Assembly (NCBI GenBank): GCA_038231435.1
Contig: JBBRLJ010000001.1
Coordinates: 1-64,000 of the forward strand
Source of the DNA: Planctomycetota bacterium
GTDB taxonomy: Bacteria > Planctomycetota > UBA11346
Length of the DNA stretch: 64,000 nucleotides
Reading direction: 5' to 3'
This document shows positions 1 to 19,938 of the stretch, one piece after another. The notes beneath the pieces are model-generated. The model saw only the letters and a program-made list of their open reading frames with translations, made no database searches and was not told where the DNA came from. The translations under genes and the position numbers were made by a program. Each line of letters starts with the position of its first letter. Position 1 is the first letter of the stretch.

Positions 1-4
1 CAAT

Positions 5-164
5 CGGGGCTCCGCCCCGCGCCCCCACGGGCTTTGTCGTGACTCGCATTCGCCGGACGCCGGCGAATGCGTGGGCGGATCGGCTATGCCGATTGTATCC
101 GCCCACCGTCACTCGGCGCCCGGCGGCTGGCGGCTGGCGCCGCGGTTTATACGGGGCTCCGCCC
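5..164 (+). repeat. Structured dispersed repeat, copy 1
   Basis: Begins with hairpin GGGGCTCCGCCCC, then the conserved core CCCCACGGGCTTTGTC, nested stems and CTCGGCGCCCG. Near-identical to the reverse complement of 1088-1223. Confidence 0.85.
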
Positions 165-326
165 TGGACGGCGTTGGCGGGCTCCGGCCGCGAAATAACA
201 AAGTGCTAGCAGATGCTGTGGAGGAATCGGGATCCCCGTCTCCCTGTGGGAAGGTGGGTCAGCACAATGCCGTGCTTCTGGAACCCCGAGCGGGCTAGCT
301 GCCCGCGGCATCCGAAGGGAGCCTAC

Positions 327-920
327 ATGAAGACCATCATTACCGACGCCGCCTCCGCAGTCTCGTCCGCAGTCACCGATGGCGTGCGCGCCGGCGCCAG
401 CGCCGTGAACGACGGCGTCCGCACCGCCGTGAAGGACCCGATGGGCGTCATGGCCGCCAATCCCTTGCGCTCGTTCGTGCACATGCACGCGACCGCGCAG
501 CCATCGCTCGCCTGCCTGAACACCTTCCTGCGTAGCGAATCGGCGGCCGTCGAAATCATCCGCCTGGTAGCCGACCGCATCGAGGTCTACCCATTCCAGT
601 CGCAGTTGCGCGAGATGCTGATCTCGCACGAGCGGCGAGTCGAGGCCCTGCGCCTGCACATCGGCCACGCTGGCGGCAAGCCGATCCCCGCCAATGGCTG
701 GTGGATCATCGGCCAACGCCTGCTCGGTCGCTTGACGCTGCTCGCCAGCGAGAAGAGCGCCCTGCGCCTGATCGCCGGCCGCGAGATGCTGACCCTGCGC
801 ACCTACCAGGGCCAGCACACCCAACTCGACGAAGACGCGAGTCGCATGCTCGCCTACGAACTCCTCCCCGAACAGGAGAAGTCCGCCGCCATCATGGCCG
901 GCCTCGCCAAGAAGCTTTAG
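327..920 (+). CDS. Ferritin-like DUF2383-type protein
   Basis: ATG at 327 follows AAGGGAG. LNTFLRSESAAVE...SHERRVEALR..I...GGKP...ELLPEQE resembles the four-helix DUF2383 family. Has an Ala/Val-rich N-terminal extension. Confidence 0.65.
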   Translation: MKTIITDAASAVSSAVTDGVRAGASAVNDGVRTAVKDPMGVMAANPLRSFVHMHATAQPSLACLNTFLRSESAAVEIIRLVADRIEVYPFQSQLREMLISHERRVEALRLHIGHAGGKPIPANGWWIIGQRLLGRLTLLASEKSALRLIAGREMLTLRTYQGQHTQLDEDASRMLAYELLPEQEKSAAIMAGLAKKL

Positions 921-923
921 TTG

Positions 924-1081
924 CGGGGGCTTTGCCCCCGGGCCCCCACGGGCTTTGTCGTCCCTACATCCTGGCCCCAAGGCCAGGATGTTTGCGTGAT
1001 GGGCTTCGCCCATTGTATCACGCAACCGGGACTCGGCGCACGGCGGCTGGCGCCGCGGTGTAATTTGGGGCTCCGCCCCCC
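924..1081 (+). repeat. Structured dispersed repeat, copy 2 (divergent stems)
   Basis: Same core and flanks as copy 1. Stem sequences differ but still pair: GTCCC/GGGAC, CATCCTGGCC/GGCCAGGATG, TTGCGTGAT/ATCACGCAA. Confidence 0.85.
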
Positions 1082-1087
1082 TTCGAC

Positions 1088-1223
1088 CCGCGGCGAAAGC
1101 CGCCGGGCGCCGAGTGACGGTGGGCGGATACAATCGGCATAGCCGATCCGCCCACGATTTCGCCGGCGTCCGGCGACATCGAGTCATGACAAAGCCCGTG
1201 GGGGTTCGGGGGCGAAGGCCCCG
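1088..1223 (-). repeat. Structured dispersed repeat, copy 3 (inverted, paired with copy 2)
   Basis: GGGCGCCGAGTGAC...GACAAAGCCCGTGGGGG is the reverse complement of the copy 1 core. Confidence 0.88.
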
Positions 1224-1225
1224 TA

Positions 1226-1786
1226 CTAAAACTTCATGATGTCGTCGGTCTTCTCTTTGAGCATCGACTCGGCCTTGGCTTCGCTCGTCTTGAGCATTTC
1301 GGAGATCTTCTCGGCGGTCTTCTTGATCGCGTCCTCGGGGGCCTTGTCGGCTTTGCCCTTGGTTTCGACCAGCTTGATCATGTCGCGGCGCACGTTGCGC
1401 ATCGAGACCTTGCACTTCTCGCACGATTCCTTGGCCTGGCCGGCGAGCTGGGTGCGGCGTTCGGTGGACAGCGCCGGCACGTTCAGGCGGATGACGATGC
1501 CGTCGCTCTGCGGGGTCATGCCCAGGTTGGCGTCGTTGAGGGCCTTCTCGATCGCCTTGATCAAGGCCTTGTCCCAGGGCTTGATCACCAACTGGGCGGG
1601 TTCGGGCACGGTGATGCCGGCGCACTGCGCGATCGGCATCGACGAGCCGTAGGCCTCGACCTGCACGTGCTCGACCATCGCCGTCGAGGCGCGTCCGGTG
1701 CGGATATGCTTGAAGTCGTGGGTCAGCGAGCCGAGGCCCTTCTCCATCTTGGACTTGGCGTCGGCGAGTTCGGCTTCGAAGGCCAT
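1226..1786 (-). CDS. frr: Ribosome recycling factor
   Basis: IRTGRAS, VEAYGS, IKPWDK..IKAIEKA, LSTERR and RNVRRD motifs; lies downstream of pyrH. Confidence 0.97.
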   Translation of the reverse strand: MAFEAELADAKSKMEKGLGSLTHDFKHIRTGRASTAMVEHVQVEAYGSSMPIAQCAGITVPEPAQLVIKPWDKALIKAIEKALNDANLGMTPQSDGIVIRLNVPALSTERRTQLAGQAKESCEKCKVSMRNVRRDMIKLVETKGKADKAPEDAIKKTAEKISEMLKTSEAKAESMLKEKTDDIMKF

Positions 1787-1863
1787 GGCGGAGATCCTTG
1801 GGATGAAGATGGAAAAAAAGAAAGGGAGGCGGGAAGACGGAAGGGTGACGGAGACGGCAGCAC

Positions 1864-2580
1864 TCAGCCGCGGCCCACGAGGGTTCCTGGCGGATTCGGG
1901 CCAAGGGCGGCGGTGATCGCGCCGGGCTTGGTCATGTCGAAGACGCGGATGCTGACATCGTGGTCGCGACACAGGGTGAACGCGGTGAGATCCATGACCC
2001 CGAAGCGACCCTCGACCGCCTGGTCGAAGGTCAGGACGTCGAAACGCTTGGCCTTGGGATCCTTTTTCGGATCGGAGCTGTAGATGCCGTCGACCTTGCT
2101 GCCTTTGATGAGCTCGGCGGCGCCGATCTCGGCGGCGCGCAGCGCCGCCGCGGTGTCGGTGGTGAAGAAGGGATGGCCGGTGCCGCCGCCGAAGACCACG
2201 ATCACGCCGGCCGCGAGCCAGGTCATCGCCTGCTGACGGTCGTACGCGCGGGCCACGTTGGCGATCGCCTGCGGCGCCATCACTTCGCAGCGACCGCCGG
2301 CGCGTTCGATGCCGTCCTTCAGCGCCAGGGCGTTGATCAGGGTGGCGAGCATGCCCATGTAGTCGCCGCGGGTCGGGTCGCTCGAACGCACCTTGAGGTC
2401 GGCGCCGCGCATGATGTTGCCGCCACCGACCACGATCGCGACCGGGGCGCCAGCGGAAGCACCGGCCACGACCTCGGCGCAGACGCGATCGAGCTCACGC
2501 TGATCGAGAATCCCCTCGGACGATCCCGACAACGCTTCGCCCGAGAGTTTCAGCAGCCGTGGACGCTTCGACGTATCCAT
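1864..2580 (-). CDS. pyrH: Uridylate kinase
   Basis: LLKLSGEAL, GGGNIMRG, GDYMGMLATLINAL, GGTGHPFFTTDTAAALRA, VDGIYSSDPKK. Confidence 0.97.
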   Translation of the reverse strand: MDTSKRPRLLKLSGEALSGSSEGILDQRELDRVCAEVVAGASAGAPVAIVVGGGNIMRGADLKVRSSDPTRGDYMGMLATLINALALKDGIERAGGRCEVMAPQAIANVARAYDRQQAMTWLAAGVIVVFGGGTGHPFFTTDTAAALRAAEIGAAELIKGSKVDGIYSSDPKKDPKAKRFDVLTFDQAVEGRFGVMDLTAFTLCRDHDVSIRVFDMTKPGAITAALGPNPPGTLVGRG

Positions 2581-2588
2581 CGTCCGCC

Positions 2589-2616
2589 AGTATTGAACGG
2601 GCAGGCTGGTTTACAA
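2589..2616 (-). promoter_or_regulatory. Putative sigma70 promoter for pyrH (near-leaderless)
   Basis: Minus strand reads TTGTAA-N16-AATACT, ending 8 nt before the ATG; no Shine-Dalgarno sequence. Confidence 0.4.
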
Positions 2617-2800
2617 CCGCATGGCGAGGGACCTGGGCCGCCCATGGGACAGCAGCTCGAACCGCTCCGATGCCGCGACGCCACGTGGAGGATCAGGACA
2701 ACCATGCGTCGCATCCAGACCAGCCTCGCATCGCCGTGGCGTCGTGGCAGAGCGATGGGTGTCCGGTCCATGTCCATCAGGGTTGATGGATGGCGCGTGT

Positions 2801-2834
2801 AAACGAAAGAACCCAGGGCGAGACCCTGGGTTCT
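2801..2834 (-). terminator. Intrinsic terminator after rpsI
   Basis: Perfect stem AGAACCCAGGG-cgaga-CCCTGGGTTCT followed by TTCGTTT on the minus strand. Confidence 0.75.
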
Positions 2835-2857
2835 GTGCTCGGCGCAGTTGAAGCGGA

Positions 2858-3253
2858 TCAGCGCTTCGAGAACTGGCAGCCGCGGCGGGCCTTGTGCAGA
2901 CCGTACTTCTTGCGCTCGACCATACGGCTGTCGCGCGTCAGCAGGCCGTGCTTGCGCAGCAGCGGCTCCGAGGCGGGCTCCGCCTTGATCAGGGCGCGGG
3001 AGATGCCGAGCACGCAGGCGCCGACCTGTCCGGTGATGCCGCCGCCGACCACGTTGACGTGGATGTCGAAGCGGCCGACGGTCTGGGCGACGTCCATCGG
3101 CACGTTGAAGAGCTTCTTCAGGCGCTCGACCTTGATGAAGTCCTCGAAGGTGCGGCGATTGATAGAGATCACGCCGGTGCCAGGAGCGATGCGCACGCGC
3201 GCCACACTCGTCTTGCGTCGGCCGAGGCCCCAGATGTACGTCTTACCAGCCAT
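2858..3253 (-). CDS. rpsI: 30S ribosomal protein S9
   Basis: GLGRRKTSVARV, GGGITGQ, LLTRDSRMVERKKYGLHKARRGCQFSKR. Confidence 0.98.
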   Translation of the reverse strand: MAGKTYIWGLGRRKTSVARVRIAPGTGVISINRRTFEDFIKVERLKKLFNVPMDVAQTVGRFDIHVNVVGGGITGQVGACVLGISRALIKAEPASEPLLRKHGLLTRDSRMVERKKYGLHKARRGCQFSKR

Positions 3254-3481
3254 GAAGAACCATCCCGGATGTTATGCGCGACAGGTGATCCCTATCGCAT
3301 TGGAGCGCAGCACGATATCCCCGAAAGCGTCGGGTCAAGGGTAGCCTGGGGTCCGACGGGCGGCGCACCGTGGCTGCCGACAAGGCATAACGGCCGTAGC
3401 GGTCTTTGCTTGTGGGTTAGCAGCCAGGCTGCCTGCGCCGGCCTGGACTTTTTGCTGCTCTATGTCGGCTATCGACGGCCG

Positions 3482-4411
3482 TCAGAAGCCCCAATTGATC
3501 GACCAGCTCGTCGAGCCGCTCGACCCTGCCGCGCGCACCACCAGGCCGGAGCGTGGCTGGCACGACGAATAGCTCGCCTGGGTGTAGCCGGCGTAGGTGC
3601 TCGGCCAGTACACCACCCGCGGCGCGTACGGGTAGCTGGAGTAGCCCCCTGCGTAGCCGTAGCTTGGGACTGACTGGTAGACGCCGAAATTAGCCTGCGG
3701 CTGCTGGTACGAGGCGACGGCGGCGTTGTCGGCGGCGCGCTGGTCCATCAGGCGCTTGCGCTCGATCTCCTGCTCCTGGCGAGCGCGCTCCTCGCTGGCG
3801 AGTATGGTCTCCTTCTCGGTCCAGCTGGTCCAGCGACCGCGAAAATACAGTTCGCCGCGCGCGGCCGCGGCCTCGCGCGGACGCATCCAGACGCCATTCT
3901 GCTTCACCTGGCCGAGCAGCTTGCGCGCCTCGGGGTGCTGGCGATCACGTTCGACGACGATCGCCGCCAGATCCTTGGCCAGCATCGGATCCCCGGATTT
4001 ACGCGCGTCGCTGGCGAGGGCCCACCACTCGTCGGCGCTGCCGCCGCCGTCGCTGCCCGCGAGCGCGACGCGCTTGGCGTTGATCGCGGCGATCGCCTGC
4101 TGGCGAGGGCTCGGCCCATGGCTGATGCTGACGACGTGCTTGGCCTCGAAGCGCTGCACGCCAGTCAGGCCGCCAATCGTCACCCGCACCTCGATCACCG
4201 CGGCATCTGGCGCCGACAGGATCTCGCCCTCGATCTCGCGGCCATCGTCCAGCTTCACCACGTCCGCGAAGCCGACCCCGCAGGCCAGCGAGCAGGCCAG
4301 GAGCACGCGCGTCCAACGCGCGCCGGATGCGCGCGCGACGACGAAGGCGGTCGAGCGGGCCGCGGCCCCGGAGATGACCTTCCTGACAACGCTGCCCATG
4401 ACGATGCCCAT
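3482..4411 (-). CDS. Secreted hypothetical protein (Planctomycete-style)
   Basis: GGAG RBS before ATG 4411; signal peptide ending GFA-DVVKLDDGREIEG; helical region with PEARKLLG..NGVW; coiled coil; Tyr/Gly-rich tail. Confidence 0.75.
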   Translation of the reverse strand: MGIVMGSVVRKVISGAAARSTAFVVARASGARWTRVLLACSLACGVGFADVVKLDDGREIEGEILSAPDAAVIEVRVTIGGLTGVQRFEAKHVVSISHGPSPRQQAIAAINAKRVALAGSDGGGSADEWWALASDARKSGDPMLAKDLAAIVVERDRQHPEARKLLGQVKQNGVWMRPREAAAARGELYFRGRWTSWTEKETILASEERARQEQEIERKRLMDQRAADNAAVASYQQPQANFGVYQSVPSYGYAGGYSSYPYAPRVVYWPSTYAGYTQASYSSCQPRSGLVVRAAGSSGSTSWSINWGF

Positions 4412-4490
4412 GTCGGTCTCCAATCAACCGAGCGTATCCGCCACGAAGAGCTGGTTAAGCGAAAAACTCAGGAAATTCACGTGATCGTCC

Positions 4491-4519
4491 TTGACCCTGG
4501 TGCGCAAAAGCCCTAGTTT
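4491..4519 (+). promoter_or_regulatory. Sigma70-like promoter of the FGGY/FtsB-like operon
   Basis: TTGACC-N17-TAGTTT ending 12 nt before ATG 4532. Confidence 0.6.
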
Positions 4520-4531
4520 CGTCAGATCAGT

Positions 4532-6034
4532 ATGGCCGCACCTGCGTACTTTCTGGGTCTCGATGTCGCCCGCACCGGCCTGGGGCTCGTGGTGGTGGCC
4601 GGCGACGGCACCATCGCCGCCTCGTTGCGCCGCGCCTATGGCGCCGAATCGGGCGGCCCGATGGACCCGCAAGACTGGTGGCGCGCCGCCCGCACTGGCA
4701 TCAAGGAGATCCTCCGCCGCGCCTCGCTGCGCCCCGAGCAGATCCGCTCGATCGGCGTCACCGGCGACGACGGCATCGTCGCCGTCGACAAGGAGGGCAA
4801 GGCCCTCTGCCCGACCTCGCTCGGCCCCGATCCACGCTGCGCCGACTACGTCGAGCAGCTGACCAAGACGGTGGGCGCACGGAATCTGCTCAATCTGGCC
4901 AGCGGCGTGGCGACCTCGTCGGCCGCCGCGGTCAAGCTGCTGTGGCTGCGCGACAACGAGAAGCGTGTCTGGCACGACCTCGCGCACATCCTGCCGGCTA
5001 AGGATTTCCTGCGCTTCCGACTCACCGACACGCTCGTCACCGACGCCTGCGACGCCGCTGGCACGCTGCTCTTCAACCCGAAGACGCGCTCGTGGTCGAA
5101 GCAGCTGCTCGGCCTGATCGACATCCACCCCGAGTGGCTGCCCACCATCAACAACGGCCAGGCCATGTCCGGCCGCGTCACCGACGCCGCCGCGCGCGAT
5201 TCTGGCCTGCAGGCCGGCACGCCGGTGGTCACCGGCGCCGGCCACGCCGCCGCCCTCGCCATCGCCACGCGCGTGCTCCAGCCCGGCTCCGCCGTGATCG
5301 AGCTCGGCGGCCAAGGCTCGCTCTTCGTCCCCACCGCCGAGGCGGTGAAGGATCCCCAGGGCCGTCTCGCCTCCACCTGCCACAGCCTCGCCGGAACCTG
5401 GGCGCTGTCGGGATCAGACCTCGCCAGCTCGCCCGGCCTCGATTGGATCATGGAGCAGGTGCTGCCCGCCGAGGTCGCGCAGGCGCGCCGCAATCAGCGC
5501 GATCCCATCGACCTGCTCGCCGAACTCGCGGCCGAGGTGCCACCCGGCGCCGACGGCCTGATCTATCTGTCGCCAACCGCGAAGCCCGCCTCCGGCGGCT
5601 TCCTCGGCCTCGAGCACCGCCATGGTCGCGGCCATCTCGTGCGCGCGGTGCTCGAAGGCGGCGCGCTCGCCTGCCGCCAGGCGCTCGCCACGCTCACCGA
5701 GCTCAAGCGCGCCCCCGACCATATCTTCGTCAGCGGCCCAGGCGCGACCAACCACCTGTGGTGCCAGATCCTCGCCGACGCGCTCGACCGCTCGATCACC
5801 GCCGTGCCGGTGCAGGAATCCGCGGCCTTCGGCGCCGCCGTGCTCGCTGGCTCGGCGGTGGGCGTGTTCAAGACCATCGAGGATGCCTGCGCCAAGTTGG
5901 TGAAGCCCAAGGGCTCATTCGCGCCGCGCCGCGCCGCGAGCGACGTCTACGCCGCGCTCGCCCCCATCTCCGCCCGTCTGTCCGAGGCCATCGCCGGCCC
6001 GAGCGCACCGAAATCGATCGAGGCCCAATCGTGA
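4532..6034 (+). CDS. FGGY-family (xylulokinase-like) protein with degenerate catalytic motifs
   Basis: YFLGLDV, DPQDWW, KLLWLRDNE, KDFLRFRLT, DAAGTLLF, RAVLEG and LWCQILAD support the FGGY fold; the GGGD motif reads GAGH. Confidence 0.85.
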   Translation: MAAPAYFLGLDVARTGLGLVVVAGDGTIAASLRRAYGAESGGPMDPQDWWRAARTGIKEILRRASLRPEQIRSIGVTGDDGIVAVDKEGKALCPTSLGPDPRCADYVEQLTKTVGARNLLNLASGVATSSAAAVKLLWLRDNEKRVWHDLAHILPAKDFLRFRLTDTLVTDACDAAGTLLFNPKTRSWSKQLLGLIDIHPEWLPTINNGQAMSGRVTDAAARDSGLQAGTPVVTGAGHAAALAIATRVLQPGSAVIELGGQGSLFVPTAEAVKDPQGRLASTCHSLAGTWALSGSDLASSPGLDWIMEQVLPAEVAQARRNQRDPIDLLAELAAEVPPGADGLIYLSPTAKPASGGFLGLEHRHGRGHLVRAVLEGGALACRQALATLTELKRAPDHIFVSGPGATNHLWCQILADALDRSITAVPVQESAAFGAAVLAGSAVGVFKTIEDACAKLVKPKGSFAPRRAASDVYAALAPISARLSEAIAGPSAPKSIEAQS

Positions 6035-6366
6035 GCATGGTCCGCCAGGTCCTGGTCGCCGTGCACGTCGCCATCGGCATCGCCGTCATCGCGCTGCTCT
6101 GCCGCAAGCTCGGCGACCGCGCGCAAGAGGTGAACACCGTCCGCCTCGCCGCCCACCAGGAGCGCGACGCCACTGTCGTCCAGCAGCGCGATATCGCGCA
6201 GATGGACGAGCTGCGCAAGGGCCTCGAAAAGAACGATCCCTATGTCATCGAACTGCTCGCGCGCGAGAAGCTGCAGTACGCCCGCTCGGGCGAGATGGTG
6301 CCGCCGCCAGCCGTCGTCCCTAAGCAGCCCGCACGCGACCGCGAGAGCTCCGACGACGCACGCTGA
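6031..6366 (+). CDS. Septum formation initiator (FtsB/DivIC-like) protein
   Basis: N-terminal TM segment, coiled coil, and DPYVIELLAREKLQYARSGE matching the FtsB/DivIC motif. GTGA overlap with the upstream gene; alternative ATG at 6037. Confidence 0.7.
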   Translation: MSMVRQVLVAVHVAIGIAVIALLCRKLGDRAQEVNTVRLAAHQERDATVVQQRDIAQMDELRKGLEKNDPYVIELLAREKLQYARSGEMVPPPAVVPKQPARDRESSDDAR

Positions 6367-6567
6367 TCCGGCGCGGCCCGCGCCGCGCTTTCCCGCCATT
6401 TCCCATCCAATTCGCCTCGTCTCGCCACCCCCCTCGCAGCCCATCCTGATTGACAGGGTTTGGACCGACGGTACCAAGTGATCTCCGTCGAGCGCAGCCG
6501 GTCAGGCGATGGTCCCAGCGACCCACCCTGACCAGCGACGCCTCCCGCGACGGCGGTTTCAGCTCAA

Positions 6568-6645
6568 CGGGGCGTAGCTCAGCTTGGCTAGAGCGTTGCG
6601 TTCGGGACGCAAAGGTCGCAGGTTCAAATCCTGTCGCCCCGACCA
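6568..6645 (+). tRNA. tRNA-Pro (anticodon CGG)
   Basis: Acceptor stem CGGGGCG/CGCCCCG, anticodon arm TTGCG-TTCGGGA-CGCAA, T-loop GGTTCAAATCC, encoded CCA. TTGACA at 6450 upstream. Confidence 0.97.
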
Positions 6646-6671
6646 TTCATACGTAAAGAGCTTTGCGTCCC

Positions 6672-6695
6672 GCCCTCGCGCGCGCGCGTGAGGGC
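6672..6695 (+). terminator. GC hairpin downstream of the tRNA
   Basis: GCCCTCGCG...CGTGAGGGC stem; no clear U-tract. Confidence 0.35.
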
Positions 6696-9264
6696 CTGTG
6701 CGGCAGCGAGCACTGGCTCCCCGGCTGCCCCAATCACTAACTCGACGGCCTGGGGCACTCTAACGCGGCGGTCCGTGGTCCGCCGCGGCACCGACATGAT
6801 CCGGCAGGCCGATCCGAACGCGAACGTCGAGCTCATGGCACCTGCCCCGTACGTCAGCGAGATCAAGCCGATCGCCGAGGACTTCGGCGGCGAGATGCAC
6901 GATACCGGAGCCATGTCCGGATTCTGGACCGACTACCTGCCGGTCATCGCGCGCGGCAGCGGGCTGCCATGCAGCCTCGAACCAGGCGGCCCCGCGACCA
7001 CCCCGGAGGACGTCCGCGCCTTCTTCGGACGCTGGCTCACCGAGGGCGTGGACGCGGTCGACTGGTTCATCCACATTGGCGACGTGGTGTTCCCCGAACA
7101 CGCAGTCATCAAGGCGTACTTCGACACCCATCTGCCGCTGTTGCGCGCGATCGGAAAATCCCACGTTCCGCGCGCCGAGGTCGCCTTCCTCTACAGCGAC
7201 CGCTGCGCCCGGCTCACCGGCTGGCCGTGGGATTTCGATGCGGGCGAGCGGCTCGAGAGCGGATTCTGGAACGACCAGCAGAACGAAGGGGCGCTGCGTG
7301 GATCCTTCCCGTTCGACGGCCTCACCGAGTCCGATTTCGCGCGCGGAAACGCTGACCAATACCGTGTGATCGCCGATTCGAACACCCAGATCCTCGACGA
7401 AAGTCAGCTCGCTGACATCGAGCGGTGGATCCGCGCCGGTGGCACCTTCATCACCTATGGCGACACCGGTCGCGACAGCTCGAACGGTTTCGACTCGTGG
7501 CCGATCTCACGCCTGACCGGCTATCAGGTCATCGGACGGGATATCCAGGGCGTCACGCCCCCGCGACCCGTGACCTGGGTATCGCAGTCGCTGCTGTCCA
7601 ACGGACCCTGGGCCAGCGGGTCCGGCGGCGGACTGAGGCTGCGACCTGTGGCTCCGGATTGCCAGGAACTCGCACTCTGGAGCGACGGCAGCGTCGCGGT
7701 CGGATCGCGCAGCCTCGGTCTCGGCCGCATCATCCAAGTCGGGACATTCGACACGAGCGGGGCTGGGGGCTGGGGCGGCAGCGTCAGGACGGCGGATCTC
7801 CTGCAGCGGGTGTGCGACCGCCTTGGCCTGGCGCGGGAGCCGGCGGTCCTGTCCTCGAGCGACCGGAGCCTGATCTTCCGGCACACCGTCAGCAATGACG
7901 GCCTCTACGACCTGTGGACGATCTATCGCGAGCATTATCCGCTGGCCGACCCGTCCATCACCACCGACATCGTCATCGCGGCTGGCCCCGCGCTCGCGTG
8001 GTGCATCGAAGTGAACACAGGCGGCGCCTATCCCATCACCACGGCGCCAGCCGGCTATCGCCTGGCGAACATTGCCATGGCTCCGCTGGATACACGCATG
8101 TTCAAGACTCCCCGCGCCGACATCGGCGCGGCGCCCCTGGACTGGTTCCGCCTGCAACGCTCGTGGTGGAAGGGGACCACGCCGGCATCCAGCATGCCGC
8201 TGCCGACGGTCGATCAGCAGTCGACCACGGATCTGAACTCCCGATGGGCCTTCAAACCGCTGGCCGTGGGCGACGACGGCTCGGCGTACGCACCCACCTC
8301 GATCGATGATTCGGGATGGGAGCATCGTGCGCTCGGCATATGGAGCGTGGAGCATCCCGGCATCACTCACGGAGTCTGGCGCAGGCGCTTCACCGTGCCC
8401 GCCGGTTGGAACGCGGGCCGGGTCTCCTTGTGGTGCCAGGCGAATTACACTCCCGCCTCCGTCACCCGCTCGCGCGTGTTCGTCGATGGAGTCCTGATCC
8501 GCGACTGGGCGAGCGACTGGGGAAGCAATCTCGTGGATGAGACCGTAGGCGGCAGCTTGCTGCCCGGTACCGAGCATCTCATCGTTCTCGATATCGCGGC
8601 CCCGTCATCGTATTCGTTGGCCGGTCCGCTCGGCGGATGCTGGCTGTCGTACCTTGCCGATCCCCAGGGAAGCATCGATCTCAGCGGCACGTGGACACCG
8701 TATCCCGACGGCGTGACACCCTCAGTCCCGGTGACGCTGCCAGGCACGCTCGCGAACGCCCTGATGGCCGAGAAGACGTTCCATGTCGACTTATCGCTGG
8801 CGGATCGCGCCATTTTCACCCATTTCACCGTCGATCTCCGCTATTCCCAGATCCTCGATGTGATCGTCAACGGCCATCTGCTGGAGAGCGTGAATCACGC
8901 GGGTTATGAACCGCTCTTCCGCTTGAACGTGACGCCCTGGATACGTTTCGGCGCAGAGAACCGCATCCAGATCGTTCCCAAGCCAGGTGGGAGCACGGCT
9001 CATTACCTGCCCGCGGCCACCTGCATCGTCACGATGATCCGTCTGGACGTCTGCGATCCCGCGACCGCTACCAATGACTTCGCGTCGTCCCCCGCTGGAG
9101 CGCCAGCAGGTGACGATGGCATCGATGGCATCGATGGATCGCCCGGTGAGGCGGGTGGGCATCCCGGTTGCGGTTTCGCCGGAGGATTCGCGATCCTGGT
9201 CACCGGGTCGCTCATCGCTTGGCGGCGCCGAGGCATGCGGCCGATTCCCGGAGTCGAACAGTGA
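6688..9264 (+). pseudogene. Probably 5'-truncated GH42-like multidomain glycoside hydrolase with C-terminal sorting signal
   Basis: No signal peptide or RBS; appears to start mid-domain (RRGTDMIRQADP, SLEPGGP). Followed by a trimerisation-like domain, GH2-like beta-sandwiches (DLNSRWAF, DLSGTW) and a GCG-TM-RRR tail. Confidence 0.6.
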
Positions 9265-9476
9265 ATCCCCCGAGCGCATCGCCTCTCGTTCATCGGGCCG
9301 TCTAGCAGGAAGCGCGCAGGGAAACGTGCCTGACCAATGCGCCCCCTCTCTGCAGGCACGCCCGCAGCGGGACAGTGATCGATGCCTATCGATCGTTGTG
9401 ACGTTCCGGGGCAATCGGTGTCTATTTCCGGTATTGCATGCCAGCATCGCGGCCGGTTGATGACCCTGGAGACAGC

Positions 9477-11540
9477 ATGACCCAGCCGCGCAATCCGCTC
9501 TGGCCGGAGACCATCTGGCACGGTGCCGACTACAATCCTGAGCAATGGCCCGAGACGATCCGCGCCGCGGATCCGGAGCTGATGCGCGCGGCCAACCTCA
9601 GCGCGGTGTCGTTGGGCATCTTCGCGTGGTCCACCATCGAGCCCGAGCCCGGGCGCTTCGATTGGACGATGCTCGACGAGGCCTTCTCGCGCCTGCACCG
9701 CGGCGGCCTGCGCATCGCGCTGGCGACTCCGAGCGCGGCGCACCCACGCTGGCTGAGCGCCCTGCACCCGGAGACGGTGGCCTGCGACGCCAACGGCGCG
9801 CGCCGCCGCCCCGGAGGCCGCCAAGCCTTCTGCCCCACCTCGCCCGTGTTCCGCGCGCGCGTGGGTGCGATCGATACCGCGCTCGCCGAGCGCTACGGCC
9901 GCCACCCTGCGCTGGCACTGTGGCACATCGGCAATGAATCGATGTCGGGCTGCTGGTGCGACCTGTGCGTCGCGCAGTGGCGCGTGTGGCTAGAGCGCCG
10001 CTACGGCTCGCTCGCCGAGCTCAATCGCCAGTGGTGGACCGCCTTCTGGAGCCAGACCTTCTCGAGCTGGGACGAGGTCATTCCGCCCTACGCCAACAGC
10101 GACGGATCGACCGGCCAGTGGCTCGACTGGCGCCGCTTCCAATCGCACCAGCTGTGCGAGCTGCTAAAACACGAGATCGCATGCGTACGCGCGCACTCGC
10201 CTAGCGTGCCGACGACCAGCAACCTCATGGGCTTCTATCCGTGGGTCGATTACGCGCAGGTCGCCGACGTGGTTGACCTGGTGTCGTGGGACTCCTACCC
10301 CGCTGTCGGTGGCGATCCGAGCCTGACTTCACTCACCCACGCGCTGATGCGCGGCCTGAAGCCATCCGCGCCCTGGCTGCTGCTCGAGCAGACTCCCAGC
10401 GCCACCAACTGGCAGGAGCATGCGACACTCAAACCGCCGGGCCTCTTGCGCGCTGAATCCTTCCAGGCAGTGGCTCACGGATCCGACAGCGTGATGTACT
10501 TCCAGTGGCGGCGTGGTCGCGGCGCCAACGAGAAGTTCCACGGCGCCATCCTCGAGCACTCGGGCCGCGACGACGCGCGGGTCTTCCGCGAAGTCTCAGC
10601 GCTCGGCGCCGAGCTGGCGCGCGTCGGACCGCGCGTTGCTCAGACCCAGGCCGCGCCAGCGCGCGTCGCCATCCTCCACGATTGGGAAAACCGTTGGGCG
10701 CTCGAGAAGGGAGCTCCTGCGCGCGACAAGCGCTACATCGAGACCATCCATCGCCACTACCGCGCGCTGTGGCGGCAGAACATCGCCGTGGACGTGACGC
10801 GCTCAGACGCCGACTGGTCGCAGTACCGGCTCCTGGTGGTGCCGATGCTCTACCTGCTCAAGACCGGCGCATTCCCGCTCGACGGTGCGCCCGAGGAACT
10901 CGCCGCGCGCATCGACTTCCCAGCACGTCTGGCGACGTGGATGCGCGCGGGCGGCACCTGCGTCGCCAGCTACCTCACCGGCATCGTCGACGAGTCGGAC
11001 CTGGCATTCACTGTTGGATACCCCGGTCCGCTCGGGCCGCTCTTCGGCGTGCGGGTCGAGGAGACTGACAACCGTCGCGCGGGCGACGCCAACCGCTTGG
11101 TCCTCGACCCGCCTCTCGCGGGCATGCGCAACGAGTACCCGTGCGAACGCTGGTTCGACCTCGTCCGTGCCGAAGGTGCTGATGTGCTCGCCACCTATGG
11201 CGACGGCTGGTATGCCGGCACCCCGTGCCTGACCAGCAACCATTTCGGCGCTGGCCGCGGCATCTGGCTCGGCACCGACGCGGACGACGCCTTCCTCGAA
11301 GATTTCTACCGAGGCCGATGCGCCGATGCCGGCATCGCCCCGCTGGTGGCGGCGGTCGACGGCGTCGAGGCTCAGGAGCGCGTCGGCGCTGCTGAACGAC
11401 TGCTCTTCCTCATCAACCATGCAGATACCTCGCGGACCATCATGCTCGGTGATCGTGTCGGCACCGATCTGCTCAGCGGCAGATCCGTTTCCGAAGCGAT
11501 CACCCTCGCGGCGCGCGGAGTGGCGATCATCGCGGACTAG
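9477..11540 (+). CDS. Beta-galactosidase, GH42
   Basis: GADYNPEQWPE, GIFAWS.IEP, WHIGNES, CWCDLC, LLEQTP, FQWRR...EKFHGA; GGAG RBS. Confidence 0.93.
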   Translation: MTQPRNPLWPETIWHGADYNPEQWPETIRAADPELMRAANLSAVSLGIFAWSTIEPEPGRFDWTMLDEAFSRLHRGGLRIALATPSAAHPRWLSALHPETVACDANGARRRPGGRQAFCPTSPVFRARVGAIDTALAERYGRHPALALWHIGNESMSGCWCDLCVAQWRVWLERRYGSLAELNRQWWTAFWSQTFSSWDEVIPPYANSDGSTGQWLDWRRFQSHQLCELLKHEIACVRAHSPSVPTTSNLMGFYPWVDYAQVADVVDLVSWDSYPAVGGDPSLTSLTHALMRGLKPSAPWLLLEQTPSATNWQEHATLKPPGLLRAESFQAVAHGSDSVMYFQWRRGRGANEKFHGAILEHSGRDDARVFREVSALGAELARVGPRVAQTQAAPARVAILHDWENRWALEKGAPARDKRYIETIHRHYRALWRQNIAVDVTRSDADWSQYRLLVVPMLYLLKTGAFPLDGAPEELAARIDFPARLATWMRAGGTCVASYLTGIVDESDLAFTVGYPGPLGPLFGVRVEETDNRRAGDANRLVLDPPLAGMRNEYPCERWFDLVRAEGADVLATYGDGWYAGTPCLTSNHFGAGRGIWLGTDADDAFLEDFYRGRCADAGIAPLVAAVDGVEAQERVGAAERLLFLINHADTSRTIMLGDRVGTDLLSGRSVSEAITLAARGVAIIAD

Positions 11541-13744
11541 CCCTCTCCCTCGGCGGTCGAGCTCCGGGCCTTGCCGGCATGGGGCGACGCATCCGACAGC
11601 GGTGACGGAGGTCGTCGGGACTGGCCCCAATCACCGGGTCGGTCTGAGAGCGTGAAACGCAGGGTACCGCCTCCGACGATCTCACCATGTCGCAGCCACG
11701 CGCGATCGAGCTGCTGGCCGTCGAGCGTCGCCGCGGCGATGTATTGGCGCAGCTGCGGACCGGCGCCGGGCGCCTCGATCACCAGCACGCGGCCGCCAGC
11801 GAGGGTGAGCTCGACGCGCGGCAAGGCGGGCGGGCTGAGCAGGTAGAGATCCTGGCCCATGATCGGATAGATCCCGATCGAGGCGCAGAGGTAGAATGCG
11901 CTCTGGCAGCCCATGTCCTCGTTGTCGTCGAGTCCATCGCGGGTCGGACGATAGTGCGCGGCGAGCATCTCGCGCGCGCGCTCGGCAGTGAGATCCGGCC
12001 TGCCCGCATAGGTGTAGAGATACGGCGTGTGGAGGACGATCTCCTTCCACGGATGGCGGCCGTCGGCGAAGAACTGGTCGAGGCGCGCGATAAAGGCGGC
12101 GTCGGAGCCCATGCGCGCGATCAATCCTGCGACATCGTGCTGGGTGTTGAACGACCACGCATGCCCGCTGCCCTCGTAGAAGTGTGGATCCGCCCAGCAG
12201 TCAGGACGGATCGCCGCCGGATCGTAGCCCGCGGCCCAAGAGCCATCGGGCCTGCGTGGCGCGAATGCATGGATGTCCTCGCGCCACAGGTTCCAGAGAT
12301 TGCGCGACGACGCTCCATAGCGCTCGGCGACCGCGTGATCGCCGAGGTGGCGTGCGAGCGCACCAATGCACCAGTCTTGATACGCATATTCGAGCTGGCG
12401 CGATACGCCCTGCCAGGTGTCGGTCGACAACCAGCCCCGATCCCGCCAGTCGCGCAGGTGGCGGCCGTGGTAACGCGGATCGTCGGGCTCGACCTCGGCG
12501 TTCTTGCGCATGAACGCCAATGCCTTGGAGTAATCGACTCCAGGCAGGCCCTTGAGCGCGGCTTCGCAGAACAGCACGTCGGCCGAACTCGCCCCCTGGA
12601 TCTGGGCGCTATGGCCAGCGATCCATGCGTCGGGCAGCCAGCCGGTGCGCTCGGCGGTGTCGAGCAGCGAGTTCAGCAGCGCACTCTCGAGCTCGGGCTC
12701 GATCAGCGCGAGCAGCGAGTTGGCATTGCGCACGCTGTCCCAGAGGCAGTAGAAGTCGCTGTAGTGGCGCACGCCCGAGCGCCACCACGGGTTCTCGTCG
12801 TCGATGCCGAGATCGGTGGGCATGCACAGCAGGCGACTGAGCATGGTGTAGAACATGGTGAGCTGCTTGTCGCTACCGCCCTCGACGCGCACGCGCGCGA
12901 GCGATTCGCTCCAAGTCGCTCGCGCGCGAGAGCGGATGTCGTCGAACGTCATCCCCGTCGTCTCGCGATCGATGCTGGCGCGCGCCTGCGCCACGCTCAC
13001 CAGCGAGATGCCGACACGCAGCTCGACGGCTTGGTCGCCGGCCTGGTTGCCGGCCGGGTTGCCGGCAAAGGAGGCGACCGCCTTGGCGTGCGCGCCATCG
13101 GTGCCGACGGCATTCCAGCAGCCGGTGGCATCGCCGACCAGGCGCGCGGTCGGGGCCCGCCCGAAGCGCACGCAGAAGAACACCGAGTAGGGATGCTGGT
13201 GTCCCCAACCTCCGCGGAAATCCCCCCGCCCGACCAGCTCGCCAGCAGAGGTGAATTCGACGAAGCCGCCGGTGCTGGCGCCCGTGCCTTCGCCAGGCCG
13301 ATTGTTGGCGACCTGGATCACCGCACCGACATCGATGAGCACATTCGCGGCGGAGCCGGCGGGGAAGGAATAGCGGTGCATGCCGACGCGCGGCGTCGAG
13401 GTAAGCTCGGCGCGGATCCCCGCGCGACCGAGCGTCACCGCGTAATACCCCGCGCTCGCTTCCTCATGCTCAGGCGAGCACGGCGATGGCGCATCCTGGG
13501 GCGGTCCGAGGAACGGCATGACACCGATGTTGCCATAGCGGCCGCCACCGCCGGTGCCGGCGACGTGGGTATGGCTGAAGCGCACGATGGCCGAACCCGA
13601 GCGGTAGCCGGTGGTATCGTGTGGGTGGACCGTGTCGGGACCGAGCCTCACCAGGCTGTGCGGCAGGTGCGGTCCGCACAGGCAGTTGCCTGGCCAGTCC
13701 ACGCCTATGAACGGGTCGATCCAACGCGCCGTGTCCTCGCCCAT
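11537..13744 (-). CDS. GH92 alpha-1,2-mannosidase family
   Basis: IDPFIG, FSHTHVAGTGGGG.YGN, VSRQLEYAY.DWCI, FYEGS, NEDMGCQSAF. Confidence 0.9.
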   Translation of the reverse strand: MGEDTARWIDPFIGVDWPGNCLCGPHLPHSLVRLGPDTVHPHDTTGYRSGSAIVRFSHTHVAGTGGGGRYGNIGVMPFLGPPQDAPSPCSPEHEEASAGYYAVTLGRAGIRAELTSTPRVGMHRYSFPAGSAANVLIDVGAVIQVANNRPGEGTGASTGGFVEFTSAGELVGRGDFRGGWGHQHPYSVFFCVRFGRAPTARLVGDATGCWNAVGTDGAHAKAVASFAGNPAGNQAGDQAVELRVGISLVSVAQARASIDRETTGMTFDDIRSRARATWSESLARVRVEGGSDKQLTMFYTMLSRLLCMPTDLGIDDENPWWRSGVRHYSDFYCLWDSVRNANSLLALIEPELESALLNSLLDTAERTGWLPDAWIAGHSAQIQGASSADVLFCEAALKGLPGVDYSKALAFMRKNAEVEPDDPRYHGRHLRDWRDRGWLSTDTWQGVSRQLEYAYQDWCIGALARHLGDHAVAERYGASSRNLWNLWREDIHAFAPRRPDGSWAAGYDPAAIRPDCWADPHFYEGSGHAWSFNTQHDVAGLIARMGSDAAFIARLDQFFADGRHPWKEIVLHTPYLYTYAGRPDLTAERAREMLAAHYRPTRDGLDDNEDMGCQSAFYLCASIGIYPIMGQDLYLLSPPALPRVELTLAGGRVLVIEAPGAGPQLRQYIAAATLDGQQLDRAWLRHGEIVGGGTLRFTLSDRPGDWGQSRRPPSPLSDASPHAGKARSSTAEGEG

Positions 13745-13770
13745 CGCGCTCACTCCTTGCTCGTATAACC

Positions 13771-13931
13771 GCTATATACTTATAAATGTACTGCTGCGTG
13801 CAACCTCCCATCATCACCCAGCAGGTCGCTTGCCTTCCCTGCTTTTCCCGCAAGCCGCGCGCACAATCAGACAGCACTGGTGGCGACGAGGGGAAATGGC
13901 TCGGAGCATAGTGATTCATATATATATATGG
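13771..13931. promoter_or_regulatory. AT-rich operator-like sites in the divergent promoter region
   Basis: GCTATATACTTATA at ~13771 and ATAGTGATTCATATATATATATG at 13908-13930. Confidence 0.5.
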
Positions 13932-13980
13932 GACTCCAGAGCCGAGTTCGCCATGACCGACACTGACCAAGGACCGACCC

Positions 13981-16128
13981 ATGCCCTTTTCGCGTCACCT
14001 CGCCCTGCTCGTCACCTTCGTCCTCTTGCTCGTAGGCGCGCTGACCGATGCGGCCGAACCCGTGCGCGTGCTCTTCGTCGGAGGTGACTGGAAGTCGCAG
14101 CTCGAGGATTTCCAAGGCAAGGGACCGTTGCGCGGCTACTTCGTGCAGCGCGAAGTCGACAAGGCAGCTCCAGGCCGCTTCGCTTTCACCCTGTGGACGA
14201 GCTACGAGTTTCTGCAGTACGCCGACGGCGACTCGCTGCGATGCTTCGATGTGGTGGTGATCGGAGACGTCATGGGCCAGAGCGTGGTGCCACGAGTGGT
14301 CGATGGCCTGCGTGAATTCGTCGGCGGCGGCGGCGGGTTGCTGTACTGCGACAACCACAAGGCGTTCAGCTTCTACACCAAGGAGCTGAGCTTCGACGAG
14401 GTCCTGCCCATCGACGTGGTGCCGTTCCGCGCCTACGACGCGCAAGGCAAGCAGCCGTACTGCGACGAGAAACCCCTGGCGATCACCCCCGTGGCTTCCA
14501 GCCACCCCATCATGGGCGGATTCGACTGGGCCTCGGCGCCGCCGTTGGAGGGAGCGCGCTACGGCGTGCTCAAACCCGGAGCCGTGGTACTCGCCACCTC
14601 GCCAGCCGGCAAACCGATCTGGGTGGAGTGGGACAAGGGCGAAGGACGCGCGCTATGGCTGGGCGGAGTGTTCGCCAATGACGAATTGTCCGAGAAGTTC
14701 AGCGCGTGGCCGCAGTTCGGCACCTTCTACGCCAAGACCCTGGGATGGCTCGCCGAGCATGCCCATTACCCACGCCGCTCCCTCACTCCGGCGATCGCCC
14801 ATGGCGAGGTCACCGTCGATATCGGGAGCCCAGGCCAGACCGTGACCCGCAAGCATTTCGGCATCCATGGCCAGGAGGAGGCCCCGGGCGCGTCGCCCAT
14901 GCAAGGCGCCGACCTGGCGCTGTACCAGGATCTCAAACTCGACCATGCCTTCGCGCGGACCAGCGCCTTCACCGGGATCAAGCGCGAAGGCCAGACCTTC
15001 GCGGACGACGGCGTCGACGCCGATCATCACGATGCCTCCAAGTACGATTGGGCCTCGGCCGACCGCACGGCGGCGGACATCGAGCGGATCCACGCCGACC
15101 CGTTGTTCCTGTTCTGGCTCCCGTGGTCAGGGCCCGCCTGGCCCGACGCCGCTCATTACACCACGTATTTCGCCGCCTCGATCGAGCATCTCAACGGCAA
15201 ACCCCCTGCCTACAAACCCCGCTTCGGATGGTTCGAGATCGCCAACGAACCCAATATCTACCCCGCAGCAGAAAACCTGCCGCGATTCGCCGACTTCTAC
15301 AACCGCTCGGTCGAGGCCCTGCGTCCGCGCGCGCCGGGCATGAAGTTCGGCTGCGGCGGCATCAACGAGTGGACGTACGTCCAGGCGCTCATCGATCGCT
15401 GCGGCAAGAATCTCGATTGGTTCAGCCGACATCCCTACGGCCACACCGGCGAGGCGATCTTCGCGCTCCAGGACCGCTATCGCGAGTACGCCGCCTCGAA
15501 AGGCATCCCCGACCTCAAGTTCATCATCACCGAATGGGATTTCTGGATCTACGGTGAACCCGCTTTCGATTATCTCATGACGCGCTGGAAGCCTCTGCTC
15601 GACCATGCGGACTCGTGCCTGGGCACCATGCAGTACCGCTGGCGCGAGTACCACGAGGGCGGGTATGTATTCGGCGTCCATGGCGAGTTCGATGGCGCGT
15701 ACGGAGCCCTGCCGCGCGAGTGGCCGAATCCGGGCAAGGACAAGCCGATCACCTACCGCTACAATGCCTTCTGGATCATGCGGGATTGCTGCGGCAAGGA
15801 ATTCGCGGCCAAGATCGTCAGCCCTGAACTGGCCGCCGCCAAGGGCCCGCGCGCCTACGCCGTCGCGACCAGCGACGGCAAGCAGTACAATCTCGTCCTG
15901 CATTACGGTTATGCGTTCAGTGATCCCAAGACCGGAGCGCGCTACGATCGCATCAAGCTGCATGTGCACGCCCCGATCCCACCTGGGATCACCGGCCGCA
16001 GCCTGGTCGTCTCCCACGCCGACTGCCGCGAGCGTCGCGAGGAGCCGCCGCGCACGATCGTCGGCGACGCCATCGACCTCGACCTCGATCTACCGGCGCA
16101 ATCCGCGGTGTCGTTCACCGTCAGATGA
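13981..16128 (+). CDS. Secreted protein: class I GATase-like domain fused to a GH39/clan-A-like domain
   Basis: Signal peptide; RVLFVGGD..DVVVIGDV..EFVGGGGGLL; later EIANEP and IITEWD (candidate catalytic Glu pair). Confidence 0.7.
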   Translation: MPFSRHLALLVTFVLLLVGALTDAAEPVRVLFVGGDWKSQLEDFQGKGPLRGYFVQREVDKAAPGRFAFTLWTSYEFLQYADGDSLRCFDVVVIGDVMGQSVVPRVVDGLREFVGGGGGLLYCDNHKAFSFYTKELSFDEVLPIDVVPFRAYDAQGKQPYCDEKPLAITPVASSHPIMGGFDWASAPPLEGARYGVLKPGAVVLATSPAGKPIWVEWDKGEGRALWLGGVFANDELSEKFSAWPQFGTFYAKTLGWLAEHAHYPRRSLTPAIAHGEVTVDIGSPGQTVTRKHFGIHGQEEAPGASPMQGADLALYQDLKLDHAFARTSAFTGIKREGQTFADDGVDADHHDASKYDWASADRTAADIERIHADPLFLFWLPWSGPAWPDAAHYTTYFAASIEHLNGKPPAYKPRFGWFEIANEPNIYPAAENLPRFADFYNRSVEALRPRAPGMKFGCGGINEWTYVQALIDRCGKNLDWFSRHPYGHTGEAIFALQDRYREYAASKGIPDLKFIITEWDFWIYGEPAFDYLMTRWKPLLDHADSCLGTMQYRWREYHEGGYVFGVHGEFDGAYGALPREWPNPGKDKPITYRYNAFWIMRDCCGKEFAAKIVSPELAAAKGPRAYAVATSDGKQYNLVLHYGYAFSDPKTGARYDRIKLHVHAPIPPGITGRSLVVSHADCRERREEPPRTIVGDAIDLDLDLPAQSAVSFTVR

Positions 16129-16305
16129 CCCTCAGACGTCCTCTGGGAAGAGGCGGCTCGCAAGCTTTCGCGACTCTCCCCATCCATGGAAAATCGTCTC
16201 ACAAGATCGGACTCCCGCATCGCCTCGCCCCGAGCCGGAGTCGGGATCCCAGATTCCAGAGCCAGGGAATACTCCAATCGGGGGCCCCATCGCCCCGCGA
16301 TGGGG

Positions 16306-16440
16306 CGGGCGCCGAGGGGCGGTCGGCGGACACCATCGGCGCAGCCGATCCGCCGACGATGTCGCAGCGAAGCGGAGACATCGAGCCCCGACAAAGCCCG
16401 TGGGGTAGGGCCCGCAAGGGCCGTAGGGGCGGAGCCCCCT
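16306..16440 (-). repeat. Structured dispersed repeat, copy 4
   Basis: GGGCGCCGAG...GACAAAGCCCGTGGGG...GGGGCGGAGCCCC with covarying stems; lies between convergent genes. Confidence 0.85.
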
Positions 16441-16453
16441 GAAACAATAAGCT

Positions 16454-18622: not shown

Positions 18623-18646
18623 GAGCGTCCTACGCGGGGTCCATCG

Positions 18647-19912: not shown

Positions 19913-19921
19913 AGATATAAT

Positions 19922-19938
19922 CTATATATCAGTGAATC
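19922..19938. promoter_or_regulatory. Candidate operator CTATATATCAGTGAATC
   Basis: Lies 10-26 nt upstream of the regulator ATG; matches the sites at 39304 and 56586. Confidence 0.65.

Follow-up and report, generated by a model that had tools for sequence, protein, structure and literature searches.

The window analysed here is a stretch of 64,000 nucleotides (nt), positions 1 to 64,000 of contig JBBRLJ010000001.1, from the metagenome-assembled genome (MAG) of a Planctomycetota bacterium (GCA_038231435.1), and it carries four copies of a dispersed repeat with a branched, multi-stem fold. An initial annotation, made from the letters alone, had pointed out these copies and had suggested that the repeat is either an undescribed structured noncoding RNA (ncRNA) or a non-autonomous mobile element. 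The copies, scored with a covariance model of the repeat core (R1), and the genes of the window that concern us are the following:

1..166, plus strand: copy 1; core 23-122, R1 116.9 bits.
921..1063, plus strand: copy 2, with an arm of type B (TTGCGTGAT); core 944-1042, R1 99.8 bits, fold z = -5.0.
1084..1225, minus strand: copy 3, tail to tail with copy 2; core 1104-1203, R1 108.4 bits.
1226..1972, minus strand: frr, the housekeeping gene of ribosome recycling factor (PF01765, 177.5 bits), its stop 3 nt from the first hairpin of copy 3.
6568-6642: tRNA gene (Rfam, 65.7 bits), the sole Rfam match in the window.
16279..16453, minus strand: copy 4, type A; core 16306-16405, R1 100.3 bits.
16454..18622, minus strand: gene of a DUF6785/DUF6784 protein, its stop directly preceding the leader of copy 4.

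All four copies lie where the initial annotation had placed them. R1 finds exactly four cores in the window (99.8-116.9 bits, the next best match reaching 16.3 bits), and the invariant 16-mer CCCCACGGGCTTTGTC occurs at 23 and 944 on the plus strand and at 1188 and 16390 on the minus strand, every time exact although up to two mismatches were permitted. These four occurrences compare with 0.03 expected, and none of 100 shuffles gets to four. The stem variants that had been quoted are likewise all present and pair as described: the closing stem (GTGAC/GTCAC, GTCCC/GGGAC, GGGGC/GCCCC), two versions of hairpin A and three of arm B. An Rfam scan had been recommended; with Rfam 15 at gathering thresholds no family matches the repeat anywhere in the window, and a permissive scan of positions 1-1300 returns seven matches, all far below gathering (the best with 20.3 bits versus 112).

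Copy 1 consists of a small GC hairpin (5-19), a core with a three-way junction (23-122) and 3' hairpins (about 119-164) that overlap the 3' box of the core; it has neither a leader nor an upstream gene because it stands at the very start of the contig, and its minimum-energy RNA fold includes the four helices P1-P4 (z = -4.2). In copy 2 a leader TTGC (921-924) follows directly 3' of the TAG stop (918-920) of an open reading frame (ORF, 213-920) that matches no Pfam family, and the hairpins lie at 925-939 (5') and about 1039-1060 (3'). Copy 3, read along the minus strand, passes from the frr stop TAG (1226-1228) through TAC and a 5' hairpin (1207-1222) to the core and a 3' hairpin (about 1084-1107). 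Copy 4, on the same strand, begins behind the TGA stop (16454-16456) of the DUF6785/DUF6784 gene with the leader AGCTTATTGTTTCA, followed by two hairpins each with TAC behind it (in reverse complement, GTAG plus a palindrome), the core and the 3' hairpin CCCCATCGC..GCGATGGGG.

The constant part of the family is a core of 100 nt, bounded by a 5' box, CCCC-N-CGG-S-CTTTGTCG, and a 3' box, CTCGGCG-S-CCG. The core starts with CCCC-N and continues with the outer helix P1 (CGG-S-C paired with G-S-CCG), a conserved internal loop in which TTTGTC faces CTCGGC, and the helix P2 of 5 bp, which opens into the three-way junction. Two further parts complete the core: the hairpin P3 of about 11-12 bp and the arm P4 of 9 bp, which has a conserved 5-nt bulge within ATTGTAT and the tip GGGC-TNC-GCCC. 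Modules of a more variable kind flank the core. On the upstream side these are a leader rich in T, with a consensus of roughly GCTGTTTA..TCA, and either one or two short GC hairpins: the 5' module of type A has TAC behind each hairpin, so that the other strand reads GTAG plus a palindrome, the signature of GTAG-tagged repetitive extragenic palindromic sequences (REPs), and that of type B is a single untagged hairpin. Downstream, one of at least three kinds of hairpin overlaps the last CCCG of the 3' box, usually with GGTTTGA-like letters behind it. Among 198 complete cores the arm is of type A in 138, of type B in 56 and of some other type in 4. The hairpins of GTAG type do not form a population of their own: 142 of the 167 GGGGC-NNN-GCCCC-TAC hairpins in the genome are joined to a core.

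The number four, correct for the window, is a large undercount for the family. The 5' box has 224 matches in the host genome (a MAG of 5.2 Mb in 108 contigs, 67.4% G+C, 87.6% complete) when up to one mismatch is allowed (reversed control: 0) and 254 when up to two are allowed (reversed control: 2). These repeats break assemblies, 114 of the 254 matches lying within 400 nt of a contig end, and the k-mer depth at the box in the best-matching run is about 3850, compared with about 11-16 for single-copy contigs, a figure to which other organisms may contribute. A scan of related MAGs with a covariance model had also been proposed; R1 matches in 36 of 48 genomes and in 16 of the 18 genera of the family, and a class-level search gives the same 48 genomes. 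The count for each genome comes from at most 85 scored candidates, so that the counts of eight genomes at or near 85 are minima. A pattern search in 16 genomes of other families of the phylum gave 0-1 matches, like the controls. Among the matches listed for 185,579 species genomes (at least 104 stretches), 100 loci were rescored and 14 are real (above 80 bits), at least 10 of these from MAGs labelled Planctomycetota and two from a single MAG labelled 'bacterium'; the remaining 86 are chance matches from many phyla. Viral carriers were sought in IMG/VR, where none of 23 exact pattern matches is a real element (best R1 score 23.7 bits). We found no description of this repeat family in the literature on REPs or miniature inverted-repeat transposable elements (MITEs) of Planctomycetes/Planctomycetota. 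Our data add a defined family, with a covariance model and hundreds of copies per rich genome, to the poorly charted repeats of Planctomycetota.

The compensatory covariation described in the initial annotation stands far above shuffle controls when many more copies are considered, and the outer helix P1, which had been overlooked, covaries too (CGGGC/GCCCG, CGGCC/GGCCG, CGACC/GGTCG). In 49 distinct cores, 29 from the host genome itself and 20 from other MAGs, 91.2% of the cells are in standard pairs, compared with 75.0% after shuffling and 36-47% when the partner is slid along the sequence; double-sided changes are found in 25 of 34 pairs, and none of 500 shuffles matches any of five measures. 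For 62 distinct cores taken from other genomes only, the corresponding values are 95.5%, 74.3% and 32-51%, with double-sided changes in 29 of 34 pairs and up to four or five pair types per position, figures that lean towards the model because the alignment was fitted to R1. The branched structure is therefore maintained, either by selection or by templated correction.

At which level the pairing is constrained is a separate question. A fold selected in one RNA strand is expected to tolerate G·U but not A·C. The 2094 cells of the relatives' set comprise 1988 Watson-Crick pairs, 12 G·T (0.6%), 20 A·C and 74 others, of which 56 are T·C or C·T, and the non-pairs fall mostly at two positions of P3; 187 distinct copies of the host genome contain 72 G·T and 111 A·C. 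For each of the four window copies, one strand folds about as well as the other (z -2.1 to -5.8, three of the copies -4.0 to -5.8). Since neither G·T nor A·C is favoured and both strands fold alike, the constraint fits the DNA level, be it through folding of either single strand or through correction from arm to arm. Covariation by itself lends nothing to the structured-ncRNA option. This is a caution for ncRNA discovery in general: covariation may be overwhelming and yet Watson-Crick only and the same on both strands, a pattern that points to a constraint on DNA, so that covariation alone is no proof of an RNA.

The position of the element relative to genes is the second conspicuous property of the family. 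Gene calls were made with a crude ORF picker based on GC3 (G+C content at third codon positions), which missed frr itself (1226-1972), and the context counts are therefore approximate. With respect to the gene on its 5' side, 174 of 251 copies are in sense orientation, 52 in antisense, and 25 lie at a contig edge. Where both flanks were called, the arrangement is convergent in 62 cases, tandem-sense in 37, tandem-antisense in 15 and divergent in 13; the genome background has 537 convergent and 418 divergent gaps. Stop-to-stop ORFs contain only 18 of the 254 copies, and for 15 of these 18 the 5' limit of the ORF is no more than 300 nt away. When the first elements of arrays are considered, 125 of 167 have a sense coding region upstream; for 111 of the 125, the distance between the end of the stop codon and the first hairpin is -2 to +16 nt. 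The same is found in many other genomes among the relatives (-2 to +13 nt in 17 of 19 loci), and this tight, oriented placement behind stops, which recurs in other genera, could be tested in culturable planctomycetes. On the far side, the distance from the 3' box to the stop of a convergent gene has a median of about 60 nt (range 12-179).

Gene ends of this genome do not in general have a T-rich leader. In three of four comparisons of filled with empty orthologues (75-84% amino-acid identity) the stop stands at the orthologous codon with the leader directly behind it. In the fourth the element lies between two genes that nearly abut in the host genome. Repeats of this kind can shift apparent stop-codon usage. 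The stops beside elements are TAG in 43 cases, TGA in 42 and TAA in 15, compared with 2119 TGA, 618 TAG and 173 TAA among 2910 other genes. A replication-strand cause of the orientation was considered and rejected: the strand of the element divides 97 to 101 against the sign of the GC skew, so the orientation is tied to the local gene.

Several signs of mobility accompany this placement. Fifteen element-bearing genes of relatives have a homologue in the host genome, and an element stands behind only two of these homologues; one of the two shared placements is not independent, because it is on a contig that is 100% identical. This contig (G047:C38:1-1616, locus L164), from a genome of another genus, encodes a protein 100% identical over 227 amino acids (aa) to one at G000:C33:56001-56750 of the host genome (G000) and has the same element junction; it could be a shared or mis-binned contig or the product of a very recent transfer. 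Presence varies within genera (1 of 3 genomes in g5, 6 of 11 in g7, 6 of 7 in g2), and genomes with zero matches stand beside rich ones. Within the host genome the cores have a median nearest-neighbour identity of 0.97 and 24 of 198 have an identical twin; of the 198 nearest neighbours only 38 stand in tandem. Twenty of 25 dispersed pairs with at least 97% identity between their cores lose their similarity precisely where the 3' box ends, and some such pairs carry 5' modules of different type; the left boundary is underestimated by ungapped pair extension wherever insertions or deletions distinguish the 5' hairpins.

Rearranged copies occur as well: there are partial, 3'-truncated units that keep only the 5' part, inverted 5' modules around P3, and arrays. 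One composite occurs twice, at G000:C36:51620-52150 and at G000:C18:60889-61449: it is made up of one type-B 5' half, one full copy of type B, one copy of type A in inverted orientation and, starting with GTTTGCG, one type-B 3' half. The composite may travel as a unit; the alternative is that the T-rich joint of P3 is a preferred site of insertion. In G006, a better-assembled relative, the family is found chiefly in tandem arrays, with a period of about 149-165 bp and as many as 12 or more units (C7:176381-178547, at least 12 units; C9:32478-33128; C3:62060-62405; C10:159184-159518), and the 5' box there has the variant CCCCCCGGCCTTGGTC.

The element is also a target for other mobile DNA. An ISL3-like insertion sequence (IS), with the terminal inverted repeat (TIR) GGTTCTTCACG at both ends, sits in an identical site of type-B copies at 11 places, all of them contig ends (on C6, C7, C8, C11, C18, C20, C60, C64, C70 and C85 of G000). 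The site is the A/T-rich joint of P3 and P4, with an apparent 8-bp duplication AAAAGTTT, and a C-terminal transposase fragment of this IS has an ISL3-type ending. Two further copies, at G000:C13:117296 (in P3) and G000:C25:84332 (at the tip of P4), are broken by strongly AT-rich foreign DNA that is other than the ISL3-like IS.

To sum up what is observed, the family has hundreds of copies, stands behind different genes in related species, and lies in one orientation 0-16 nt behind stop codons. In our view the element is probably a mobile DNA repeat, non-autonomous, mosaic and specific to this lineage, of the kind represented by REPs, bacterial interspersed mosaic elements (BIMEs) and MITEs, and it is probably not a dedicated RNA gene. 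Of the two options offered by the initial annotation, the non-autonomous mobile element is thus the favoured one: the non-orthologous sites, the near-identical dispersed copies and the shuffled modules speak for it, whereas the ncRNA option gains nothing from covariation and has only the sense orientation of the element at gene ends to speak for a role of the RNA.

A mechanism of the following kind would be consistent with these properties. The fold may act on the level of DNA: an enzyme would read it in the folded single strand, with the conserved loops as its recognition site. Pairing of the stems could persist if only master copies with paired stems are propagated, or through correction between the arms of a hairpin. 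Orientation and placement probably reflect insertion into transcribed DNA, in which the first harmless site would be just behind the stop, with selection presumably removing insertions inside genes. The element would then be co-transcribed into the 3' end of the upstream mRNA, and such stable hairpins should, when co-transcribed, affect mRNA decay and translation termination, as E. coli REPs do. Such effects on RNA, which may be a side effect or a later exaptation, are probably secondary.

The initial annotation had regarded the repeat as possibly undescribed, which holds in so far as it belongs to no Rfam family; its kind, in contrast, is familiar. Like the GTAG REPs and BIMEs of E. coli, Pseudomonas and Stenotrophomonas, it has hundreds of extragenic copies, mostly 3' of genes and near stop codons, has covarying stems, forms mosaics, dimers and clusters, and is an IS target, and its type-A 5' module consists of small palindromes with GTAG on the other strand. 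According to Di Nocera et al. 2013 (PMC3733652), GTAG- and CGTC-tagged REPs also occur in the Planctomycetes-Verrucomicrobia-Chlamydiae (PVC) group including Planctomycetes, mostly downstream of genes and in mosaics, and genes resembling those of REP-associated tyrosine transposases (RAYTs) are flanked by other repeats. PMC5082802 cites work on REPs as IS targets and states that, in E. coli, REPs no more than 15 nt from a stop codon stall ribosomes. The differences from REPs concern architecture and setting: the constant unit here is a 100-nt three-way junction with a conserved junction and bulge, and not a palindrome of 20-40 bp; the GTAG hairpins are swappable accessories (untagged in type B) and the core itself does not have the form of a REP; the orientation relative to the upstream gene is strongly single, and no repeat-flanked RAYT was found in the genome.

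Other families of folded repeats resemble the element in part. REP doublets forming hairpins (REPINs), which Bertels and Rainey are said to have described in 2011, are reportedly inverted doublets that make one long hairpin and go together with a single-copy RAYT. Our element shares with the REPIN-RAYT system the non-autonomous hairpin repeats, the within-genome subfamilies, the near-identical dispersed copies and the compensatory stem changes, but its fold is branched and not an inverted doublet, and the Y1 transposase genes of the relatives (see below) do not track it. The enterobacterial ERIC sequences (enterobacterial repetitive intergenic consensus, or intergenic repeat units, IRU), the pneumococcal BOX elements (boxA-B-C), the Correia elements of Neisseria and the mycobacterial interspersed repetitive units (MIRUs) are likewise modular, stably folded and co-transcribed repeats of 100-200 bp, and MIRUs, too, are intergenic, uniformly oriented and in contact with stop and start codons. 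Our element has no sequence relation to any of these families, which come from different phyla, and no TIR or TA-type duplication as in Correia elements; we know of no conserved three-way junction described for them. From MITEs it differs in having no recognised TIR that matches a parent IS and no target-site duplication (TSD).

Several observations weigh against a mobile repeat. The first is that no mobilising enzyme was identified in the genome, which is 87.6% complete and, as a MAG, of the type of assembly that loses precisely repeats and ISs. The sole match to Y1_Tnp in this genome is a protein of 348 aa that scores 33.9 bits with the Pfam model and 39.3 with the RAYT model NF047646, for which the cut-off is 80, and it is not flanked by the repeat. 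Across the 48 genomes there are three sorts of Y1_Tnp genes, none of which tracks the element counts; an element lies within about 1.5 kb of a Y1_Tnp gene at 0 of 11 and 2 of 18 loci, and these 2 of 29 are about as many as chance would give, by an estimate from element density. Secondly, no TIR or TSD was recognised in the aligned ends of the element, the exact termini of which are uncertain, and these ends are unlike the TIR of the ISL3-like IS, the sole IS found touching it. Thirdly, no polymorphic empty site was caught: the two same-genus genomes are too diverged in the flanks, the single orthologue found in that search having a different neighbour, and contigs assembled from metagenomes are interrupted at the repeats. 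No RNA run is listed as containing positions 13900-18700 of the window; four DNA metagenome runs from a single study contain them, and among their contigs that align with positions 1-20000 no joint skips an element cleanly. With neither TIR nor TSD nor an empty site, transposition is something that we infer and have not seen. Fourthly, the repeat has diverged less within the genus than the coding DNA at its flanks. In positions 15300-17300 the repeat copies of G001 and G002 are mostly 75-86% identical to those of the window, a few short pieces higher, and the flanking coding DNA yields one 260-nt match at 68% and two short ones. To our knowledge, moreover, a branched core with conserved junction loops has not been described for REPs. 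Finally, a selected RNA would also be in keeping with this lower divergence of the repeat, with its strictly sense orientation, with its narrowly fixed distance from the stop and with the conservation of the loops across genera.

The single Y1 gene of the host genome deserves a brief description of its own. It lies at G000:C28:22443-24500 (locus L031, 685-2736), is IS200-like with an HUH-type motif (HFH), and stands back to back with a gene for a tyrosine-recombinase-like protein of 316 aa; this locus may be part of a separate mobile island.

The features that would suit an RNA lead to the strongest of the alternatives, a real if minor possibility in our view: the element may be a selected cis-acting RNA module of the 3' untranslated region, acting as a stabiliser of the mRNA 3' end, as a platform to which a global RNA-binding protein binds or as a brake in the termination of translation, with mobility as its route of spreading. 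Sense placement prevails both overall (174 versus 52) and in tandem pairs (37 versus 15), the first hairpin follows the stop by 0-16 nt in 111 of 125 cases and does so in other genera as well, the orientation is independent of GC skew and tied to the local gene, and the loop and junction sequences are conserved across 16 genera. Furthermore, the sense strand can lengthen P1 by two invariant U·G pairs and one G-C pair, which the other strand cannot, and effects of this kind on RNA are reported for E. coli REPs in PMC5082802. However, the sense strand has no excess of wobble pairs and folds as well as the other and no better; 12 of the 48 genomes, some of them close to rich ones, lack the element, and its positions differ between species. 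Truncated, rearranged and IS-disrupted copies are tolerated, about a quarter of the copies are antisense or in promoter regions, and a single gene can be followed by an array of as many as 12 or more units, which is unlike a dosage-sensitive signal.

A bolder version of the mobile-repeat reading seems unlikely to us. The element might home, strand-specifically and without a RAYT, to the first few nucleotides behind the stops of unrelated genes, coupled to transcription or to the ending of translation, and its branched fold might be the recognition site of an enzyme or RNA-binding protein that is class-wide. If this were true, it would represent a new targeting principle for bacterial mobile elements and would offer a ready-made, transferable 3'-end module.

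It is very unlikely that the element brings the upstream transcript to an end as a mobile intrinsic terminator of transcription. Its location at gene ends in sense orientation and its very stable GC hairpins would agree with this function, and one 3' hairpin (1043-1056) passes a loose terminator scan. A T run behind the hairpins is present in only one of the four window copies, though, the tails being mostly GGTTTGA-like with 2-4 T, and elements also lie between closely packed co-directional genes that resemble operon partners. Canonical terminators exist elsewhere, in the window at 2834-2808 and, in a relative, behind an element. The canonical intrinsic terminator was accordingly rejected as a candidate, a GC hairpin with a T run being found in one weak case among the four window copies.

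Two further explanations are extremely unlikely. According to one of them, the repeat would be the RNA or the end of an RNA-guided transposon (an omega RNA of TnpB/IscB, a bridge RNA of IS110), or a repeat derived from a retron or other retroelement and comparable to short interspersed nuclear elements (SINEs), as its multi-stem fold of 100-170 nt, its conserved loops, its many copies and its T-rich variable leader, an A-rich tail on the other strand, might suggest; yet the proteins cognate to such systems, to retroelements and to IS200/IS605 derivatives (palindrome-associated PATE elements, TnpB omega RNA) have no match in the genome as far as it is complete (87.6%; TnpB, PF07282; reverse transcriptase, PF00078; IS110 transposase, PF02371; found as positive controls in 8, 3 and 6 of 14 known genomes, respectively), no Rfam family matches, and variable stems with constant loops are the reverse of what a programmable guide would have.

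According to the other, no less improbable one, the elements would be attC-like sites of an integron or of another tyrosine recombinase, and each gene with its element a scattered cassette. Sites of the attC type (60-140 bp) have conserved ends and variable paired middles, act as folded single strands, and stand directly behind the ORF of the cassette in one orientation. The likeness, for example to attC of the type of the Vibrio cholerae repeats (VCR), extends to covarying stems that are constrained as single-stranded DNA, and the genome does encode a true integron integrase (TIGR02249, 466 bits). The ends of the element, however, lack the pair RYYYAAC / GTTRRRY, that is the R''/R' core; it stands behind housekeeping genes (frr), over dozens of contigs and in arrays devoid of ORFs, and it does not form one array beside intI. 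Since the resident attI and attC are canonical and unrelated to the element, this reading was rejected. The integron itself lies at G000:C17:106635-108500, where intI exceeds the cut-off of 265 for its model; attI (GTTAGGC near 107826) is followed by a markedly AT-rich cassette and by an attC of about 145 bp (C17, about 108350-108495) with R'' ACCTAAC and R' GTTAGGC, some 180 bp before the end of the contig.

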